From positions 17,653-81,652 of the forward strand of contig CAYNHF010000021.1 in NCBI GenBank assembly GCA_964397045.1: a stretch of DNA of 64,000 nt. The letters run 5' to 3'. The notes below the pieces were generated by a model. It ran no database searches. It saw nothing but the letters and a program-made list of their open reading frames with translations, and was not told where the DNA came from. Positions 2,441 through 63,505 of the stretch are shown in pieces; position 1 is the first letter of the stretch, and the number at the start of each line of letters is the position of its first letter. Origin of the DNA: an uncultured Acidimicrobiaceae bacterium. Lineage in GTDB: Bacteria; Actinomycetota; Acidimicrobiia; Spongiisociales; UBA5794. A program made the translations under genes and the position numbers.

Positions 2441-4609
2441 TCAAGCAGCCGGGGAAGTCGGCAGGCGGAGCCGGAACGTACTGTGTCCGTCCTCGACGTA
2501 GTAGTCGAGGCTGCCCCGCATCACTTCCGCGAGGTGCCGGCTGACCGTGAGACCGAGACCAACCGAACCGGGCAGCTTCTCGCCGTCGGGTGCTCGATGG
2601 TACGGATCGAAGATCGAGTCCCATTGATCGGCCGATAACCCTGCTCCGTGGTCCTGCACGAGCAACTCGACCTGGTGGTCCGCCGTCTGTTCGACCGAGA
2701 TATGCACCGGCGCCGTCCCGTAACGTGCTGCATTGGACAGCAGGTTGCGGAGGATCTGCCGTACCCGAAACGGGTCGGCATGAGCATTGGGAGCAGTGCT
2801 GAGATCAACGTGGGCGGTTCCCCCGGTCCACACGTCGAGCACCTGGCTCACCTCTACTGAGAGGTCGATCGTGCGAGGCTCCACCACGACCTGGCCTCGC
2901 TCGGCTCTGGCAGCTACAAGCAGGTCATCGATGAGGTCTGCCATCTCGCTGCTCTGGTCTGCGATGAGGCGAATGAACTCCTGCTGCTCCTCTGGTCCGA
3001 ACGCTGCTTGGTTGAATCGGAGCTCGGTCGCCAGCCCGACGATGGCGGTGAGCGGGGTGCGCAGCTCGTGACTCACTGAGGCAACGAGATCGTCCTTCGA
3101 CTTGAGGAGCGACTCGAGCTGGTGCTGCACCAGCTTCTGTTCGGTGACCTCGCGGACGGTGACGAGAGCGTGGGTGTCATCGATTCGGCTGATCGTTGCA
3201 GAGAAGAACCGTTCTGGTGGCGACCCGGTGAGGCCAAAGTCGAAATGGGCAGGTTTGCCCAGGTCGAGCACGGTCCGTACCTGTTCAAGGAGCGGAGCGG
3301 CGTGGTCGGGGAACAGATCGGTGACGGTGCCGTGGACCGCCTCCGACACCGGGCCGACCCCTCGCGGGGTCTTCGCTGGACGAAACGACCGGATTGTTCC
3401 GCCACGATCGACGCGAAGCATCATGTCGGGGATGGCATCCAACAGGGCGGAATTCTCCGACTCTGTCTGGTGCAGCGCGACTATTGCGTTGTGCCGCTCC
3501 GTTACATCGACGAACTGGGCGAGGATCGATCGCGGTTTGTCCCCGGGCCCGGTTACCGCTGAAGCACTGATGAGCGCCCACCGCATGGGGTCCGGGACGA
3601 GGGAAAGGCGTCGTTCCCCGAGCAGATGGGTCGACTCGACCCTACCCAGCGCTTCCAGCATGGCGAGATCGTCGTGCTCGAGATCCCAGATGTCTTGCAG
3701 CGTCAGGCCCTGCAACACTGACTCGGTGGTTCCCAGCAAGCGGCAAATCGCAGGGTTGGCGCGGCTGATCCGAAGCCGGTCGTCTGCGATGACCATACCC
3801 GTCGGAGCCTCCGCGAATGTGCCCCGAAACAGAGCTTCCGATTCGGCGAGTTCCTCGGCGACCCTGGTTCGATCGGTGACGTCGAACACCTGGCTGGCGA
3901 TCGCAAGGAGCGAGCCATCGTGGCGCCGGATCGCGGAAGAAGCGATGAGCGTGTGGAGATAGTTTCCTTCGGCATGACGCAGCCGTCGTTCCACCTTGTA
4001 GGAATCGAGGACCCCGGACCGCATCTCTGCCATGAGTCCCAGCGCGTCCGGCAGTTCATCCGGGTGGATGAACCGTGCCGCGGAACCGATCAGCAACTCC
4101 GATTCTCGGACGCCGAGCATCTTGCACAGGGCTGTGTTCACCTGTTGCATCACCAGGTCCGGGTCCATGATTGCCAGGCCCTGGGGGGCATGGCGGAACG
4201 CGCTGCTGAACCGTTCCTCCGCCGCTTCCAGCGCGGCCTCGATCCGGTGGCGATCGGTCACATCTTCGAGGACTCCTTCCATGAAGCGGGCCCGGCCGAA
4301 CTGGTCCTCCACCGTACGGGCCGTCACCCGGACCCAGATGGTGGTTCCATCCCTGCGGCGCAATTCCACTTCGTGGGGTGGAATGTCCTCGCCTTCCTCC
4401 AACCGGATGACGAGGCTGCCGCGGAGATCGGGATCGGCGTAGAGATCTGACACGGTGACGCTGAGAAGGTCGTCTGCGGAATCGAAGCCGAGCATCTCGA
4501 CGAGCGCACTGTTGACCATGACGAGGCTCCCGGATGGGGTTGTTCGGTAGGCCGCGACTGGAAGGTGCTCGATGAACTCGAGCAAGTCCGATTCGCGAAG
4601 CAGTGCCAC
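2441..4609 (-). CDS. multi-PAS/PAC sensor histidine kinase (orphan), 722 aa
   Basis: Several PAS/PAC segments (e.g. DVTDR, VREVTEQK), HisKA SHELRTPLT, HATPase NLLSNAARYG, DHGAG, GLGL. Confidence 0.9.
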   Translation of the reverse strand: MALLRESDLLEFIEHLPVAAYRTTPSGSLVMVNSALVEMLGFDSADDLLSVTVSDLYADPDLRGSLVIRLEEGEDIPPHEVELRRRDGTTIWVRVTARTVEDQFGRARFMEGVLEDVTDRHRIEAALEAAEERFSSAFRHAPQGLAIMDPDLVMQQVNTALCKMLGVRESELLIGSAARFIHPDELPDALGLMAEMRSGVLDSYKVERRLRHAEGNYLHTLIASSAIRRHDGSLLAIASQVFDVTDRTRVAEELAESEALFRGTFAEAPTGMVIADDRLRISRANPAICRLLGTTESVLQGLTLQDIWDLEHDDLAMLEALGRVESTHLLGERRLSLVPDPMRWALISASAVTGPGDKPRSILAQFVDVTERHNAIVALHQTESENSALLDAIPDMMLRVDRGGTIRSFRPAKTPRGVGPVSEAVHGTVTDLFPDHAAPLLEQVRTVLDLGKPAHFDFGLTGSPPERFFSATISRIDDTHALVTVREVTEQKLVQHQLESLLKSKDDLVASVSHELRTPLTAIVGLATELRFNQAAFGPEEQQEFIRLIADQSSEMADLIDDLLVAARAERGQVVVEPRTIDLSVEVSQVLDVWTGGTAHVDLSTAPNAHADPFRVRQILRNLLSNAARYGTAPVHISVEQTADHQVELLVQDHGAGLSADQWDSIFDPYHRAPDGEKLPGSVGLGLTVSRHLAEVMRGSLDYYVEDGHSTFRLRLPTSPAA

Positions 4610-24265: not shown

Positions 24266-25975
24266 ATGAACACACTGCGCGTCGCCGGAGCTCAGCTCAA
24301 TCCTGTGGTTGGAGATATCGAAGCTAACGTTGCTTCGATCGGGGCCGCGATGTCGTGGGCGGAGGGCCAGGAAGCAGACGTGTTGCTGCTCCCGGAGCTC
24401 GCCGTAACCGGATATCCGCCGGAAGACCTCGTACTTCGCAACTCCTTTGTGCAGGCCAGCCTCGACGGCTTGAACGACCTCGCCCGGCTGGCAGATCGCA
24501 CCGTCACGGTTGTCGGTTTCGTGGATCGGGCTGAACCCGAACTCCGCGGCGAGGACGCAGTGGATCGAATTGTGGCCAACGCTGCTGCGGTCTTGCATCG
24601 TGGGGCCGTGATCGGGGTGTACCACAAGGTCCTCCTGCCCAACTACGGAGTATTCGACGAAGCCCGCTATTTCGAGCAGGGGCGCGACGCAGCCATGGTG
24701 TGGGACATGGCAGGGACCTGCGTCGGGATTTCGATCTGCGAGGACATCTGGACCACGGACGGGCCTCCGTCTGCCCAGGCTGCAGCCGGGGCCAGAGTGC
24801 TGCTCAACATCAACGGTTCGCCGTATCACGTCGGCAAATCCGGGGAGCGAACCGCGCTCCTCGGGGCGGCCGCACAGCGGTCGCAAGCGCACGTCGTGTA
24901 TCTCAACATGACGGGCGGTCAGGATGAGCTGGTCTTCGACGGCGAGTCGATGGTATTCGACCCCGCAGGGATGCTTGTGTACCGCGCCGCTCAGTTCTCC
25001 GAGGAGCAGTTCGTGCTGGATCTGCACGTGTCTCCGCATCCGGTTCCGCCGGAAGCCCGGCAGACAGGGGGCACCGCGCGCACCGGTCGAGTGCAGGTAG
25101 CGGCTCCGGTTTCGAGCTTGGTGCTGCCTGCACCCGAGGAGATCTACGAGGCGCTGGTGCTCGGGCTGGGGGACTACGCACGCAAGAACAGATTTGAGCA
25201 GCTCGTCGTCGGCCTCTCCGGGGGGATCGACTCAGCGCTGACATGTGCGATCGCGGTGGATGCGTTGGGTGCAGACGCGGTGTGGGGCGTGTCGATGCCG
25301 ACTCGCTATAGCTCCGTTGGGTCGGTGGAGGATTCGCGGGAGCTCGCGGGAAGGTTGGGCTGTCGCTTCGATGTGCTCGAAATCGAGGAGGTGTTCACGA
25401 CCTACCTCTCCACCGTGGCGCCCTTCTTCCACGACACGACGGAGGGAGTGGCGGAAGAGAACCTGCAGGCCCGAATTCGGGGGGCGGTGCTGATGGCACT
25501 ATCGAACAAGTTCGGCGGCATGGTCGTGGCGACCGGGAACAAGTCGGAGATGGCAGTCGGCTACGCGACGCTGTATGGGGACATGGTCGGGGGATTCTCC
25601 GTACTCAAGGATGTCTTCAAGACCCGGGTGTACGAACTGGCGAGGTGGCGAAACGGGCGCTCGGATGTCATCCCGCAGGCCATCATCAACAAGCCTCCTT
25701 CGGCAGAGCTTCGCCCCGATCAGCTCGATACCGATTCGCTCCCCGACTACGACCTGCTGGACCGGATTCTGAAGCGATATGTCGAGCGTGATGACTCGGT
25801 GGCAGACATCGTCGCGGCTGGCTTGCCCGCCGCAGTGGTACATCAGGTGGCGGCGCTGGTCGACCGCAATGAGTACAAGCGGCGACAAGCCGCCCCCGGC
25901 GTGCGGATCACTAGCAAGGCCTTTGGCAAGGACAGGCGGCTGCCCATCACGAACCGGTTCCGTTCCGATGTCTGA
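24266..25975 (+). CDS. nadE: glutamine-dependent NAD+ synthetase
   Basis: Nitrilase triad (PEL, HKVLLPNY, ICEDIW); SGGIDS, ENLQARIR, TGNKSE, PPSAEL, EYKR. Confidence 0.95.
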   Translation: MNTLRVAGAQLNPVVGDIEANVASIGAAMSWAEGQEADVLLLPELAVTGYPPEDLVLRNSFVQASLDGLNDLARLADRTVTVVGFVDRAEPELRGEDAVDRIVANAAAVLHRGAVIGVYHKVLLPNYGVFDEARYFEQGRDAAMVWDMAGTCVGISICEDIWTTDGPPSAQAAAGARVLLNINGSPYHVGKSGERTALLGAAAQRSQAHVVYLNMTGGQDELVFDGESMVFDPAGMLVYRAAQFSEEQFVLDLHVSPHPVPPEARQTGGTARTGRVQVAAPVSSLVLPAPEEIYEALVLGLGDYARKNRFEQLVVGLSGGIDSALTCAIAVDALGADAVWGVSMPTRYSSVGSVEDSRELAGRLGCRFDVLEIEEVFTTYLSTVAPFFHDTTEGVAEENLQARIRGAVLMALSNKFGGMVVATGNKSEMAVGYATLYGDMVGGFSVLKDVFKTRVYELARWRNGRSDVIPQAIINKPPSAELRPDQLDTDSLPDYDLLDRILKRYVERDDSVADIVAAGLPAAVVHQVAALVDRNEYKRRQAAPGVRITSKAFGKDRRLPITNRFRSDV

Positions 25976-26007
25976 AGCCGGCCCACGACTCCAGTAGTCT
26001 CGCCGTC

Positions 26008-26847
26008 ATGGGTTCGATTGGTGGCGTCCTGATCGATGGCAGCGAGGTGCCGGCAGGGGCAGCTTCCGTCTCGGTTTTCGATATCGGATTTCAACGCGGA
26101 TACGGTTGCTTCGAGGCGATGCGATCGTATGGAGGAACCGTGTTCCGCCTCGAAGAGCACGTGACTCGGCTGCAAAGCAGCGCGGCATTGATGGGTCTGC
26201 CACTGCCGGCTGCAGAAGTGCTCGCAGGCTGGGTGCGAGACCGGGCCCTTCAGGGTGGAGACTGCACCGTTCGAGTGCTGGTCAGTGGCGGTACCGAGCT
26301 GTTGAATCCCGGCTCCGGAACGGTGGTCACCGTGTATGCCGAGCCGCTTCACCCAATCGCGGCCGTGCAACGACTGCTTCCCATGGAGGCACCGTGGCAC
26401 CCGGCGGGCACTGCGAGCCAACTCACCGGGGCAAAGACGTTGTCGTACGGTCCGAATCTGGCGGTGAGCTTGGCGGCACGCCGGGCCGGGTACAACGACG
26501 CGCTCCTGATCGGGCGGGACGACACGGTCCTCGAGGGCCCGACGTACAGCGTCGCATGGGTCACCGGCAACGTGCTCGAAACCCCGGCGTTGAGCCTGGG
26601 CATTCTGGATTCGATCACCCGGCGAGTTCTGCTCGAGCTCGCGCCGGGAGTCGGCCTCCAGATTGCTGAAGGCGTTTACGGGCTGGATCGGGCCCTTGCT
26701 GCAGACGAGGTGCTCGTGCTTTCGACGCTCAAGGAGATTTCCAGGGTTGCCGCCGTTGGCGATCGGGTGTGGGAGTCGACCCGCTGGTCGAGTTTGCTGG
26801 GTGCAGCCTTCGGGGAGCTCGTGGCTGCCGAGACCGGAGCCGATTGA
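26008..26847 (+). CDS. aminotransferase class IV (PabC/IlvE-like)
   Basis: FQRGYGCFE, AKTLSY (PLP Lys), LEGP, ILDSITR, ADEV. Confidence 0.85.
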   Translation: MGSIGGVLIDGSEVPAGAASVSVFDIGFQRGYGCFEAMRSYGGTVFRLEEHVTRLQSSAALMGLPLPAAEVLAGWVRDRALQGGDCTVRVLVSGGTELLNPGSGTVVTVYAEPLHPIAAVQRLLPMEAPWHPAGTASQLTGAKTLSYGPNLAVSLAARRAGYNDALLIGRDDTVLEGPTYSVAWVTGNVLETPALSLGILDSITRRVLLELAPGVGLQIAEGVYGLDRALAADEVLVLSTLKEISRVAAVGDRVWESTRWSSLLGAAFGELVAAETGAD

Positions 26848-26863
26848 CCTGGACTATCTGTCC

Positions 26864-27274
26864 TTGCTGGCGAGGATCGACGAGCTGTACGAGGGCGTGG
26901 TGATGGAGCCCGGCCAATGGGATGACGCGTCGTTGTCCGACTGGCTCGACGGAGCGGCGTTGGGGGGCGACGAGCCTGCGTCCAAGGATCTGGCCCGCGA
27001 GCTGAGGCGGTGCGTTCGGTCCGCACAACGCATGCGCGACTTCTGGTCGCAGGGTGATCAATCACGCCCGGTCGACGCCGGCGACTGGAGAACCCGAGTG
27101 GACGTGGCGATGGGAGCGCGCGCGTGGCGGCCGACGCTGGCCATCGCCCAGCTCGGCCTGCAGGAAACTCCATCTGAGGAGCTCTTTGAGGAGGTGCGCG
27201 ACCGGTTTCGCGTAGTCAACTCGGAGTACTGGATGGATGGCGTCGAGTACTCGGATTGGGTCGGTTCCGTGTGA
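26864..27274 (+). CDS. hypothetical protein (start uncertain)
   Basis: Open frame filling the gap; Trp/acidic-rich (DAGDWRTRVD); TTG start assumed. Confidence 0.6.
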   Translation: MLARIDELYEGVVMEPGQWDDASLSDWLDGAALGGDEPASKDLARELRRCVRSAQRMRDFWSQGDQSRPVDAGDWRTRVDVAMGARAWRPTLAIAQLGLQETPSEELFEEVRDRFRVVNSEYWMDGVEYSDWVGSV

Positions 27275-29440: not shown

Positions 29441-29506
29441 CTCCCCATCCTTTGCGCCGTACACTCCTTCCCGATCTCGAGGCTCATTAGAACGGGGGGA
29501 GGTGAC

Positions 29507-30574
29507 ATGGTGAAACGGCTCACACAGTTCTCCCACGGCGCCGGTTGAGCATGCAAGCTCAGCGCTGATGAGCTGGCGCAGGTCCTGCGCCGATTGGACA
29601 ATCAACCCTCGACGATGCACCCCGACCTCCTGATCGGGATGCGCGAATCAGACGACGCCGGCGTGTACCGCATCGCCGACGACCTGGCCCTAGTCCAAAC
29701 CGTCGACTTCTTCACTCCCATCGTGGACGAGCCCCGCGATTGGGGACGTATAGTCGCGGCCAACGCCCTGTCAGACGTGTACGCAATGGGCGGCCGCCCA
29801 CTCACCGCTCTCCAGGTGGTGGGATGGCCGCGCGATTCTCTCCCACTCGACATGCTCGGCGAGGTACTCGAAGGCGCCGCCTCGATACTCGAGGCCGCGG
29901 CGTGCACGCTTGTTGGAGGTCACACCATCGATGATCCCGAGCCAAAGTTCGGGATGGCGGTCACCGGCCTGATCCATCCGGACGACATCATCAGCAACGA
30001 GGCGATTCGGCCTGGAGATGCTCTCGTGCTCACCAAACCGATCGGCACCGGGCTCATTACGACCGCGATCAAGCGGGGGCAGGCTTCACCCGCCGAACGA
30101 GACGCCGCGGTCGCCTCCATGGCGGCGCTCAACGTCGGGGCGGCCGATGCGATGCGGCGGGTCGGAGCGAAGGCGGCCACCGACGTCACCGGATTCGGTT
30201 TGCTCGGGCACCTGGGTGAGATGCTTCGCGCCGGTGGTTGCAGCGCAGAGTTGGACCTCGCGGCTATCCCCATCCTGCCGGGTGCCCGCAACTATGCGGC
30301 TGCCGATGTGGTGCCCGGCGGAACCAGGCGCAATCTGGCTGCTGCATCGCGATTCACCGTCTTCGGCGACGCCGAAGATGCCGATCAGATTCTGCTGGCA
30401 GACGCCCAGACAAGTGGAGGCCTCCTTATCGCAGTCGAGGCGCCGCTCGAAGCTGCCCTGCTGCAGGCCCTGGAAGAGGAGGAAGTGATGGCGGTACCTG
30501 TGGGGCGGGTGACCGAGCGGTCGTTCGAAGACGGCCCCAGTGGTCGCATCCTGGTGATTCCCGGTCATGGGTGA
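29507..30574 (+). CDS. selD: selenide, water dikinase, selenocysteine-containing (in-frame UGA at 29546-29548)
   Basis: GGAGG RBS, ATG 29507, [18 protein letters not shown] in frame with [56 protein letters not shown]. Confidence 0.93.
29555..29574 (+). promoter_or_regulatory. candidate bacterial SECIS hairpin
   Basis: AAGCTCA-GCGCTGA-TGAGCT stem-loop just 3' of the UGA, loop beginning with G. Confidence 0.5.
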
Positions 30575-30998
30575 CGTTGGACCCGACCGTCTCGACGCCA
30601 TCGCGGACGCGCTGAGCATCGGGCGACTGCGTCACCATGTCATATTGTGCGCAGAGCAGTCGACGCCACGCTGCAGCGGCTACGAGGAGAGTGCCGCGGT
30701 GTGGCGACACCTGAAAGCGAGGCTCAAGGAGTTGGGTCTGGCTTCGGCGCCTCCGACTTGGCGCGGGAGTGACATGAGCGACGCTCCGCCCCCGCACGAA
30801 ACCGGGCGCGGCGAGGTGCTCCGCACCAAGGCCGACTGTCTGCGGGTCTGTGAGCAGGGACCGATCTGCGTCGTGTATCCCGAGGGGGTGTGGTACCACT
30901 CGGTCACCCTGGAAGTGATGGAACGGATCATCGTTGAACACCTCGTTGCAGGGGCACCTGTGGAGGAGAATCGGTTCGCATTGGACGATCTCGAGTAA
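30567..30998 (+). CDS. thioredoxin-like [2Fe-2S] ferredoxin
   Basis: ILC......RC and [21 protein letters not shown]; overlaps the selD stop by 8 nt. Confidence 0.85.
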
Positions 30999-57182: not shown

Positions 57183-58544
57183 GTGGGCAATTTCGCGGCT
57201 TTGAAGACCCAGGCTGAGGCAGCGTTGGCGCTGTCGAGAGAGGAGGACGGCTACTCCCTTGGCTTGCAGGCGTTCAAATATGGCTACCCGGCCATCGAGA
57301 TGTATCGCAGCCGCTGGGAATGGCACTACGACCGAACCAGCCCCAACTACAACGGCCCGGTGAACCGCCTGGGCCACACCAAGCGTGCTACGCACGAGGA
57401 CCGCTTCGTAGTGACGCCGATCAATGACGCGGTGTACTCGCGGGCCTTCGTCGACCTGGCAGTGGAGCCGGTGGTGATCGAGGTCCCGAAGATCGAAGAT
57501 CGCTATTGGACCGTGCAGATTGCCGACTTCTACACGAACAGCTTTGCCTACATAGGGAAGCGGCAGGGCGACGGCGCGGGTGCCTACGCATAGGTCGGGC
57601 CCGATTGGCGTGGTGTGCTCCCGAACGGACTCAACCGAAGCGTCACCGCTCCGACGCCGGTCATTGCGTTGCTGGCCAGGGTCGCGGTCCTGGACGACGA
57701 GGAGGCGCCCGCGGTCGGGTTGCAGAAGCAATTCAAGCTCACGCCACTGAGCTTGTGGTCCGGCAACACAAGCGAAGCCGCCGCGGCCGCAACGCCTCTG
57801 CCGTATCTCGATTTCAAAGACGGTGATTCGCTCGACTTCCTTCGGATGTTGAACTGGGTCATCACGGAGAACCCGCCACCGCCCACGGACGCCGGGGCCC
57901 TGGGACTGTTCGAACGGATCGGCATCAAACCAGGAACCGAGTTCGACGCCGACCGCCTGCATCCTGCGATGGTCGACGGCTTGCGGCGGGGGATCGATCA
58001 GGGGCTGGTGTCTTTGCTAGGGGAGATGCCGTTCTGCGTTCCCAACGTCAACGGATGGTTGATCCCGGATCCCAGCCGATCGGGCAACTTCGGCACGGAC
58101 TACCACCTGCGGCTGGTGACGGCCGAGATTGGACTGCTGGCCAACGACGCACGCGAAGCGCTGTACATCGGATGCTTCATGGACAACGCGGGAGAGCCGC
58201 TGGTCGGTGGAAGGGAGTACACGATTCACTTTGACGAGGACCAGCTTCCACCGGTCGATGAGTTCTGGTCCCTCACGATGTACACCCACCCGCCGGGGTT
58301 CCTCACCGAGAGCAGCACGAACCGTTACGCCCTGGGGACTCTGACGCCGGGCTTCGCGCACAACGAGGACGGGTCGGTGGATATCTACATTCAGCGGGAG
58401 TCTCCCGGCCCAGGGAGGGAGTCCAACTGGCTACCCACCACGCCCCAGGGTGAGCTGTTCCGGATCATCTTCCGGATGTACAACCCCGGCCCCCATATCC
58501 TCAACGGCACGTGGAAGCCGCCTTCGATAGAACGAGTCGCCTGA
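57183..58544 (+). pseudogene. DUF1254/DUF1214 protein interrupted by one in-frame TAG (57591-57593)
   Basis: YGYP, VVTPINDAVYS, DFYTN before the stop and VGPDW, NDAREALY, FWSLTMY, NEDGSVDIYI, SNWLP after it, all in the same frame. Confidence 0.8.
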
Positions 58545-58587
58545 CGGCGGTGTGCCCGCCTATCGACACGTCGAAGCGACCTGCTGG

Positions 58588-58815
58588 TTATCGCTTGATG
58601 AGTTGTTTGAATCCGGCGACTCCCATGAACAGCAGAGGTCGATCGACGATGTCGGGATCGTCGTCCAGTTCCTCTCTGGTGAGGTCGTTGAGTTTCAGGT
58701 TCATGGAGCTGACAACCGTCTGGTCGAATTTCGGGTTGTCGCGGTTAGCGAGGTTGCCTAGCTCGTTGGGGTCTTCCCACAGGTCGTAGAGCGCCACGTT
58801 GCTGTCTCGGTAGAG
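58588..58815 (-). pseudogene. 3' remnant of a paralogue of the 61817-63505 sulfatase
   Basis: LYRDSNVALYDLWED...DPDIVDRPLLFMGVAGFKQ matches the C-terminus of the intact gene; similarity stops abruptly near 58815. Confidence 0.85.
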
Positions 58816-59758: not shown

Positions 59759-59823
59759 TGGCGGAGGCGGACGGGAATCGAACGCGCCAGGGGGTTTGTC
59801 GCCCCCTCAACGGTTTTGAAGAC
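59759..59823 (-). pseudogene. selC: 3' part of tRNA-Sec (anticodon loop to CCA), att-like scar 1
   Basis: Minus strand GT-CTTCAAA-ACCG (UCA anticodon), long variable arm AGGGGG/CCCCCT, T loop TTCGATT, CCGCCTCC-GCCA; no 5' half; one T-stem mismatch. Confidence 0.85.
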
Positions 59824-59880
59824 GGACTTCCCGTTGCCTTCTGTTTTCGTCTAGACCTGTCTAGACCTGGTGACACAAAC

Positions 59881-61569: not shown

Positions 61570-61630
61570 GGAGGCGGACGGGAATCGAACCCGCCAGGGG
61601 GTTTGTCGCCCCCTCAACGGTTTTGAAGAC
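61570..61630 (-). pseudogene. selC: 3' part of tRNA-Sec (anticodon loop to acceptor, no CCA), att-like scar 2
   Basis: Same sequence as scar 1 with an intact T stem GCGGG/CCCGT; upstream sequence forms no D arm or acceptor 5' strand. Confidence 0.85.
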
Positions 61631-61697
61631 GGGCTTGTGGTGTTCCGACTGTCTCCGTCTGCTGCCGTCTAGACCCGGCTAGGCGTTGTGGCGCAGC

Positions 61698-61764
61698 GGG
61701 TCCAGTGCCGAGTAGACCCTTCAGGGCCGTTGAGTTCCTTTGGCTACGCCACGTCGTGGCACCG
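61698..61764. repeat. conserved ~68-nt block following scar 2, copy 2
   Basis: Matches 59881-59948; followed by a second GGCACCG. Confidence 0.8.
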
Positions 61765-61816
61765 AGTTCGGCACCGGACTATGCCCGCTCGTCAGTCCGT
61801 CGAGGCAGCCTGCGGG

Positions 61817-63505
61817 TTACTGCTTGATGCGTTGTTTGAATCCGGCGACTCCCATGAAGAGCAGGGGTCGATCAACGATGTCCGGATCGTCACCCAGTTC
61901 GTCTCTGATGAGGTCGTTGAGCTTATCGTTCATGGAGCTGACAACCGCCTCGTCAAATTCCGGGTTGTCACGGTTGGCGAGGTTGTCTATCTCGTCGGAG
62001 TCTTCCCACAGGTCGTAGAGCGCCACGTCGTTGTCTCGGTAGAGGTCATCCGTCGTTGCTGGTTGGTTGTGTTCGTTGATGGCGTGGTACCGGATGAACT
62101 TGTAGCGGCCGTCGTAGACGCCGCGCATGACATGACGAGCGTCGAAGTGTGAGTCGCGGATCGAGTTGACGAGGCCTTTGGCCTTGTCGAGTTTGCTCTG
62201 CTCCTCCTGGGCGGCGTCTTCGTCGTCGCCCAAGTCGATCATTCCGGAGGCAACCTCGGCAATGAATTCCATATCAACCGCCCACAACACGTCGTAGGTG
62301 TACAGCGCACCTGTTCCGGGTTGTGTAGTTGAGCCGCGAGCGGTGAACACCTCGGGGTCGGCGACAATGCCTGCTACATCGAAGCCTCGTAGCTGCGGGT
62401 CACGTTGGGTTTGCTGCTCCGCGCTGACCCCGGCCCAGCGAAGCAACGTTGGTGCAATGTCAACGCTGGTACCAACGGCATCGGTGGTGCGACCACCAGC
62501 AAAGTCGGGATGCACGACCACGAACGGAACGTTCCACCCCTCCTTGAACGGGATGGCTCCCTTCTGGCGCATCCCGTGCCCAGCAACCATGTCACCATGA
62601 TCAGCGGTGTACACAATGATGGTCCGGTCGGCTTGACCGCTGGCTTCGAGCGCATCGAGCACTGCCCCGATGTGCCGATCCACGTCACGCAGACAATTGA
62701 GGTAGTAGTTCACGTACCGTTTCCACATGTCGTGCCGATCCGTCGGCATCTCCCCGTAGCTGATGTCACACAGGGTGCGGTAGTAGCGGACCGCCTCGGG
62801 ATGCTGGTCGAGCGGGTCATCGAACGACGACGGGAGCTCGATGTCCCACTGCTGCTGGTAGATCGGGTCGTCAGGTTCGGTGGTGATCTGCACCAGCCCG
62901 CTCACCTGGGTGTCCCCGGTGCCGTCAGCGTCGAAGAACATGACGTCGTGCGGGTTACAGAAATTCACCGCAAGGAACCACGGCTGCGATTCGGCGATCT
63001 TCCCAGCCCGGTCCGTGAGCCATTCCGCGGCGTCGGCTGCGATCTCACCATCACGTTCATAGCCGTCGCGGACCTCACCCCAGATCTCACCGAAATCCTG
63101 GTAATCCGAGAACCCGTACGGCTCCAATACGTCCCGAGTGTGCTCCCCAGTAATCACGCTGAGATGCCACTTCCCCTTGAACGCCGTGTAATAGCCGGCG
63201 TCACGCAACATGTGCCCAACGGTACGAACTTCCTCCGGGTCGAGGTCGTCTATCCAGGCCATGTTGGTGTTGTCCCACATCCCGTTCTGCACCGCATGGA
63301 CTCCGGTGTACATCACCGAACGCGACGGAGTACACAACGCCGTATTCACCTGGTAGTCGTCGAAAACCAACCCGGCGTCCTCGAGACGCTGCCGATTCGG
63401 TAACTCGTAGCCGTCTGGACGGGGTGCGTGGGCATAAGTCTGATCCGTCGTCAAGAACAGAATGTTGTATCGGCCAGACTCATCCGACTCCACTGGACCC
63501 GTCAT
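61817..63505 (-). CDS. formylglycine-dependent sulfatase (no signal peptide seen)
   Basis: NILFLTTDQ, LCTPSRSVMYTG (CxPxR), GKWHL, NPHD, ADHG, K; ATG 63505 with GGAGGGG RBS. Confidence 0.92.
   Translation of the reverse strand: MTGPVESDESGRYNILFLTTDQTYAHAPRPDGYELPNRQRLEDAGLVFDDYQVNTALCTPSRSVMYTGVHAVQNGMWDNTNMAWIDDLDPEEVRTVGHMLRDAGYYTAFKGKWHLSVITGEHTRDVLEPYGFSDYQDFGEIWGEVRDGYERDGEIAADAAEWLTDRAGKIAESQPWFLAVNFCNPHDVMFFDADGTGDTQVSGLVQITTEPDDPIYQQQWDIELPSSFDDPLDQHPEAVRYYRTLCDISYGEMPTDRHDMWKRYVNYYLNCLRDVDRHIGAVLDALEASGQADRTIIVYTADHGDMVAGHGMRQKGAIPFKEGWNVPFVVVHPDFAGGRTTDAVGTSVDIAPTLLRWAGVSAEQQTQRDPQLRGFDVAGIVADPEVFTARGSTTQPGTGALYTYDVLWAVDMEFIAEVASGMIDLGDDEDAAQEEQSKLDKAKGLVNSIRDSHFDARHVMRGVYDGRYKFIRYHAINEHNQPATTDDLYRDNDVALYDLWEDSDEIDNLANRDNPEFDEAVVSSMNDKLNDLIRDELGDDPDIVDRPLLFMGVAGFKQRIKQ

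Follow-up and report, generated by a model that had tools for sequence, protein, structure and literature searches.

The window, by which we mean the whole stretch of 64,000 nucleotides analysed here, carries a gene for selenide-water dikinase (selD) whose frame is interrupted at a single point, by a TGA at codon 14, before it ends at a second TGA (Table 1). The gene starts at an ATG behind a Shine-Dalgarno-like sequence, with the GTG that follows as an alternative start. Upstream, on the opposite strand, lies mgtE, and downstream are a ferredoxin gene, an alpha/beta hydrolase gene, ctaA, and ctaB. The ATG of the ferredoxin gene overlaps the stop codon of selD (ATGGGTGA), an arrangement that suggests translational coupling of the two. 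The assembly comprises 3.09 Mb in 55 contigs and is 97% complete; searched with the read-through SelD protein, it was found to contain selD as a single copy.

Table 1. Features of the selD locus, the selenocysteine (Sec) machinery, and the candidate selenoprotein genes. Positions without a contig (C) are those of the window.
Feature	Position	Strand	Details
Shine-Dalgarno-like GGAGG	29498..29502	+	4 nt before ATG 29507, 7 nt before GTG 29510; direct reading
selD (selenide-water dikinase)	29507..30574	+	355 codons including Sec14; own TGA stop; TIGR00476, NF002098
UGA predicted to be read as Sec	29546..29548	+	codon 14; catalytic Sec/Cys position in the glycine-rich N-terminal loop GAG-U-ACK
Hairpin 1	29556..29574	+	AGCUCA-GCGCUGA-UGAGCU; 6 bp, 7-nt loop; between UGA and hairpin 2
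Hairpin 2, proposed SECIS apical hairpin	29575..29591	+	GGCGCAG-GUC-CUGCGCC; 7 bp, loop 29582-29584, 33 nt after UGA
Piece of selD in the plain ORF list	29594..30574	+	326 aa, from TTG 29594
Thioredoxin-like [2Fe-2S] ferredoxin	30567..30998	+	143 aa; NF041612 1.6e-12; PDB 1F37 [2Fe-2S] ferredoxin 5e-10
Second partial tRNA-Sec copy, non-functional	59763..59838	-	RF01852 31.6 bits; 59/60 of last 60 nt identical to selC; D-arm missing
Partial tRNA-Sec copy, non-functional	61570..61662	-	RF01852 39.9 bits (below gathering score 47); last 60 nt 60/60 identical to selC
Intact selC (tRNA-Sec)	C21:82924-83019	-	72.2 bits, gathering score 47; ARAGORN tRNA-SeC, anticodon tca
selA	C34:123724-125046		424.5 bits, cut-off 268
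selB	C34:125066-126847		279 bits (308 with C-terminal stretch), cut-off 242
FdhA	C23, TGA at 25335		SCNRT-U-HAPSVAGL; TIGR01591 639 bits
Peroxidase-related AhpD-like	C20:9321-9872		CHY-U
Peroxidase-related AhpD-like	C32:56999-57592		CVY-U
Alkylhydroperoxidase-related (seleno)protein	C9:30618-31607	-	CFF-U; NF041238 206.8 bits, cut-off 175
SelW-like Rdx protein	C8:26548-26790		CAT-U
AhpC/TSA peroxiredoxin-like protein	C3:61685-62362		U-PYC
Thioredoxin/TlpA-like lipoprotein	C16:60479-61216	-	U-STC
DUF3179 protein	C22, TGA at 3469		U-PLC; scanned in Pfam only
Methyltransferase	C34:191785-192495	-	N-terminal U-C; match to residues 25-151, U at 26, starting one residue before the TGA

Read through the TGA, the product belongs to the SelD family, as its full-length matches to two equivalog profiles exceed their curated cut-offs (TIGR00476, 399.5 bits for a cut-off of 125; NF002098, 365.9 bits for a cut-off of 299). 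The profile match begins at residue 3-4, that is, upstream of the TGA. Residues 9-17 read SHGAG-U-ACK and align with the GAG-C-ACK of homologues that carry cysteine; they contain the Sec/Cys position followed by x-C-K in the glycine-rich N-terminal loop, which in SelD proteins bears the catalytic Cys or Sec and a Lys. The motif is U-A-C-K here and U/C-G-C-K in E. coli. The ribosome-binding site, the start codon, the HGAG-TGA-ACK in frame with the remainder of the gene, and a stem-loop just after the UGA had all been pointed out in an earlier, sequence-only reading of this DNA, and each was found where that reading had placed it. The same reading held that the codon is the catalytic one and proposed an alignment to Cys homologues as a check; in that alignment, the TGA falls exactly on their Cys codon.

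To follow the codon through relatives, the read-through protein was used to search 60 genomes from within the same family and order. A selD gene was present in 57 of them, with the in-frame TGA in about 51 and without it in six. Among 29 loci that were fetched from these relatives, codon 14 is TGA in 27 (within GAG-*-ACK or GAG-*-GCK) and TGC or TGT in two, and the peptide RLTxFSHGAG, immediately upstream, is conserved throughout, which indicates that translation crosses the TGA. A scan of a collection of species-representative genomes added 77 SelD loci with the motif, from Actinomycetota, Gemmatimonadota, Bacteroidota, and other phyla, in which the equivalent codon is TGA in 39 and TGC or TGT in 38; the nearest titled records were Acidimicrobiia and Acidimicrobiales MAGs. 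The UGA thus lies in frame on the Cys codon of the homologues, with conserved coding sequence on both sides of it.

Two hairpins follow the UGA (Table 1). Folding of this single sequence gave a structure no more stable than that of its shuffles (z = -0.72), so the hairpin taken alone is not beyond chance expectation and it is the comparative data that carry the case. Because the first 18 codons after the TGA are free of insertions and deletions, the hairpins could be scored at fixed positions. Hairpin 2 was retained in all 67 Sec forms, with seven of its seven pairs in 53 and six in the other 14, while the 40 Cys forms mostly kept two to four of the seven (Mann-Whitney p = 6e-20, a value that ignores phylogeny). 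Across the order's 28 Sec sequences, the paired fraction of the cells was 98.6%, and sliding the 3' partners by one to three columns lowered it to just 24-45%. Three pairs in these 28 sequences were altered on both sides, two in hairpin 2 (columns 31/45, from G-C to A-U four times and to U-A once; columns 36/40, from G-C to A-U three times) and one in hairpin 1 (columns 16/24, from G-C to A-U four times). At column 31 the substitution is non-synonymous (Ala, Thr, or Ser), and the Arg codon on the opposite side carries a matching synonymous one. The loop of hairpin 2 is always GUN.

The contrast between Sec and Cys forms is partly confounded by phylogeny and GC content, as many of the Cys forms come from low-GC Bacteroidales. 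Hairpin 2 is, however, also broken in Cys forms of the same order (L024 and L028), of Acidimicrobiales, and of Gemmatimonadota, which makes the contrast more than an effect of GC content or phylum. The sequence-only reading had proposed a search of bSECIS type, and a hairpin of this type is conserved where the codon is UGA and lost where it is a Cys codon. Hairpin 1 has all six pairs in 44 of the 67 Sec forms, compared with 9 of the 40 Cys forms; possibly it contributes to the SECIS as a lower or auxiliary part, and possibly it is in part a by-product of the KL...EL codons. A two-hairpin element is unlikely.

The model bacterial SECIS is that of E. coli fdhF, a stem-loop 3' of the UGA within the open reading frame, with the apical sequence GCA-GGUC-UGC and a loop about 18 nt from the UGA, and such elements are bound by the C-terminal winged-helix part of SelB. 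In hairpin 2, GCAG-GUC-CUGC corresponds to the GCA-GGUC-UGC of fdhF, and the selB of this genome has the corresponding C-terminal stretch. GGUC or GGUCU loops recur after the UGA in the FdhA gene, two AhpD-like genes, and the methyltransferase gene of the same genome. On the strength of the fdhF-like apical motif and these recurring loops, we take hairpin 2 to be the apical hairpin to which SelB would bind. Unlike in fdhF, the loop lies 33 nt rather than about 18 nt from the UGA, and the predicted stem is without the bulged U. The element stands directly 3' of the UGA and has a G-containing apical loop, in keeping with the bSECIS model, which places the loop 16-37 nt from the UGA; the spacing of 33 nt seen here is long, falling at the upper end of this range, and counts against the Sec reading.

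These observations also bear on the more ordinary explanations of the interrupted frame. If the TGA were a true stop, selD would be either a pseudogene or a gene for a truncated SelD begun at the TTG further downstream; this is what the plain ORF call gives, and the unremarkable fold of the single sequence would be in its favor. The truncated product, however, would be without the glycine-rich loop, the catalytic Sec/Cys, and the Lys, the 13 codons preceding the TGA show protein-level conservation across families and phyla, and a start at the TTG is at odds with a profile match that begins at residue 3-4. Nor would a pseudogene be expected to have the same TGA preserved, along with a covarying hairpin, across more than 60 genomes, and we regard a true stop as very improbable. 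That the TGA is a sequencing or assembly error for TGC or TGT, from which it differs by one base only, is harder still to credit. TGA occupies this codon in 27 fetched relatives and in 39 more distant genomes, all assembled independently, and it is accompanied by a SECIS hairpin that Cys forms are without. This recurrence excludes both an error and a pseudogene private to this genome, and it contradicts the read error that the sequence-only reading had named as its possible undoing.

If the TGA is read as a Sec codon, the genome should encode the machinery of Sec decoding, and selA, selB, and an intact selC were all found above their cut-offs (Table 1), as the earlier reading had called for. 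selA adjoins selB, and selC shares a contig with selD, 1.3 kb past the end of the window. It is these genes that bear out Sec decoding in this lineage. A profile search for selU (TIGR03167) found none in the genome, and selD here therefore serves Sec, with selenouridine ruled out as its purpose. TGA is the stop codon of 11 of the 15 family-supported or long ORFs in the window, selD included; being an ordinary stop, it would be recoded at specific sites, under an unchanged code. A genome-wide reassignment of UGA to Trp or Gly (codes 4 or 25) can be dismissed as next to impossible, given these stops, the complete Sec machinery, and the fact that the in-frame TGAs found are all on redox Cys positions of known selenoprotein families.

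Taken together, selD of this Acidimicrobiia genome almost certainly encodes a selenoprotein, with Sec probably inserted at the UGA by means of the downstream SECIS. The ribosome would start at ATG 29507 (or GTG 29510) and meet the UGA, where SelB.GTP.Sec-tRNA(Sec), tethered to the mRNA by the SECIS within the coding sequence directly 3' of the codon, with its G-GUC-C apical loop, would deliver Sec. Sec would thereby occupy position 14, the catalytic position of the glycine-rich loop, before the ribosome ran on to the ordinary TGA stop at 30572-30574. As selD is single-copy, the enzyme would depend on its own product for its synthesis, a loop that is said to have been noted for Sec-SelD as early as 1996.

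Correct as this reading appears to be, it describes an already known and very common kind of bacterial selenoprotein. Guimaraes and colleagues were reportedly the first to note a Sec-containing SelD, in 1996, in Haemophilus influenzae and Methanocaldococcus jannaschii. The enzyme family, the replacement of the catalytic Cys by Sec in the GxG(U/C)xCK loop, the stem-loop in the coding region after the UGA, and the need for selA, selB, and selC are the same here as in known Sec-SelDs; nothing of substance differs, the particulars of this case being the 33 nt between loop and UGA and the additional small hairpin between them. SelD and FdhA are the two most widespread families of bacterial selenoproteins (PMC1794560, PMC9312934), and in a 2022 review SelD figures in the five families of widest distribution and ranks with the most abundant ones in marine samples (PMC9312934). 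A close parallel is found in marine Actinomarina, also Acidimicrobiia, which according to a 2026 preprint have selA, selB, selC, and selD but no ybbB, a SelD that is a selenoprotein, and a selC located at an insertion hotspot (10.64898/2026.04.03.716425); the same preprint credits the Sec/Cys polymorphism of SelD to Guimaraes et al. (1996). Our genome agrees with Actinomarina in class, in having the four sel genes without selU/ybbB, in its Sec-SelD, and in having selC at an insertion site. It differs in belonging to a different order or family, in being about three times larger (3.09 Mb), and in having about ten candidate selenoprotein genes, compared with about five per Actinomarina genome.

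The finding on SelD opens no new question, and its use lies mainly in annotation and comparison. When every TGA is taken as a stop, gene calling reduces selD to the 326-aa ORF without the catalytic loop, and splits or truncates about nine other redox genes of the genome. The result adds a marine lineage of Acidimicrobiia that as a rule decodes Sec and has a Sec-dependent SelD (about 51 of 57 relatives), and it gives a clean comparative picture of a SelD SECIS that persists in Sec forms and degenerates in Cys forms.

That other selenoprotein genes of this genome are hidden from annotation had also been predicted. In-frame TGAs flanked by coding sequence were sought across the genome, and the candidates were then taken through family searches; as there was much noise in the motif and ORF scans (139 and 267 raw candidates), only those with a recognizable family context were kept. 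Nine further genes had a TGA at a redox residue (Table 1), in line with the prediction; the read-through product matched a family in eight of them, and the match spans the TGA in seven of the nine. Three other candidates (C33:14582, C49:43468, and C16:76099) were discarded because they resembled out-of-frame sequence. SelW-like, AhpD-like, SelD, and Prx-like proteins are prominent in marine metagenome surveys, and the candidates of this genome are of families prominent there (PMC9312934).

The FdhA gene gave only sub-threshold matches to TIGR01553, which flagged the in-frame TGA, and then matched TIGR01591. The Sec-FdhA (C23:~25101-26999, + strand) follows the latter profile from model position 49 onward, with a score just below the cut-off of 666. 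An N-terminal 4Fe-4S domain was not matched in Pfam, nor was one visible in any upstream frame. The gene is either N-terminally truncated or rearranged, or it encodes a form without the 4Fe-4S cluster.

The ferredoxin-like protein encoded next to selD had no Pfam match even at E <= 1. In all 37 relatives that have both genes, from 12 families of the order, the two are neighbors, no more than about 1.5 kb apart in nearly all and about 6 kb apart in one, with the ferredoxin gene either downstream on the same strand or divergently upstream. About 20 relatives with selD lack the ferredoxin gene and two without selD have it, which weakens the link. A functional tie between the ferredoxin and selD is possible, and the gene order argues for it weakly. 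It is improbable that the ferredoxin has an undescribed accessory role in selenium activation (such as donating electrons for the making of selenide or its delivery to SelD), or else that the SECIS is a two-hairpin element.

Two tRNA-Sec fragments in the window, at 59.7-61.6 kb, had been cited in the sequence-only reading as a sign of Sec decoding. The fragments do exist, as matches to RF01852 below the gathering score (39.9 and 31.6 bits against 47), but they do not stand as working tRNAs; neither was called by ARAGORN, and no tRNA or RNA gene was found in the window by ARAGORN or by Rfam at the gathering score. Alignment to the intact gene showed that each copy covers the final 60 nt of selC, starting at the anticodon stem and running to the 3' end. 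We rejected the fragments as the decoding tRNA, since they are just 3' copies and the intact gene lies beyond the window; they add no more than color to the picture of a Sec-using lineage. The copy at 59763-59838 also matches about 26 nt of the 3' flank of selC. The 5' parts of both copies are unrelated to tRNA and similar to each other, with a repeated GGTCTAGAC.

The fragments look like insertion scars, which would have been left by repeated insertion at selC. An inspection of ORF translations between the copies revealed no evident integrase-like ORF. The two tandem 60-nt copies below the intact selC bound units of about 1.7 kb and about 3.6 kb, with a 446-aa ORF and a presumed sulfatase gene. 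Positions 58511-58789 and 61740-62018 give near-identical translations of 92 aa in a non-coding-looking + frame (..PAGY.LM.CLNPATPM.SRGRSTMSGSS..), which suggests that a DNA segment of about 280 nt is duplicated and flanks the tRNA-Sec copies. This segment may represent the 3' end of a minus-strand sulfatase-like gene.
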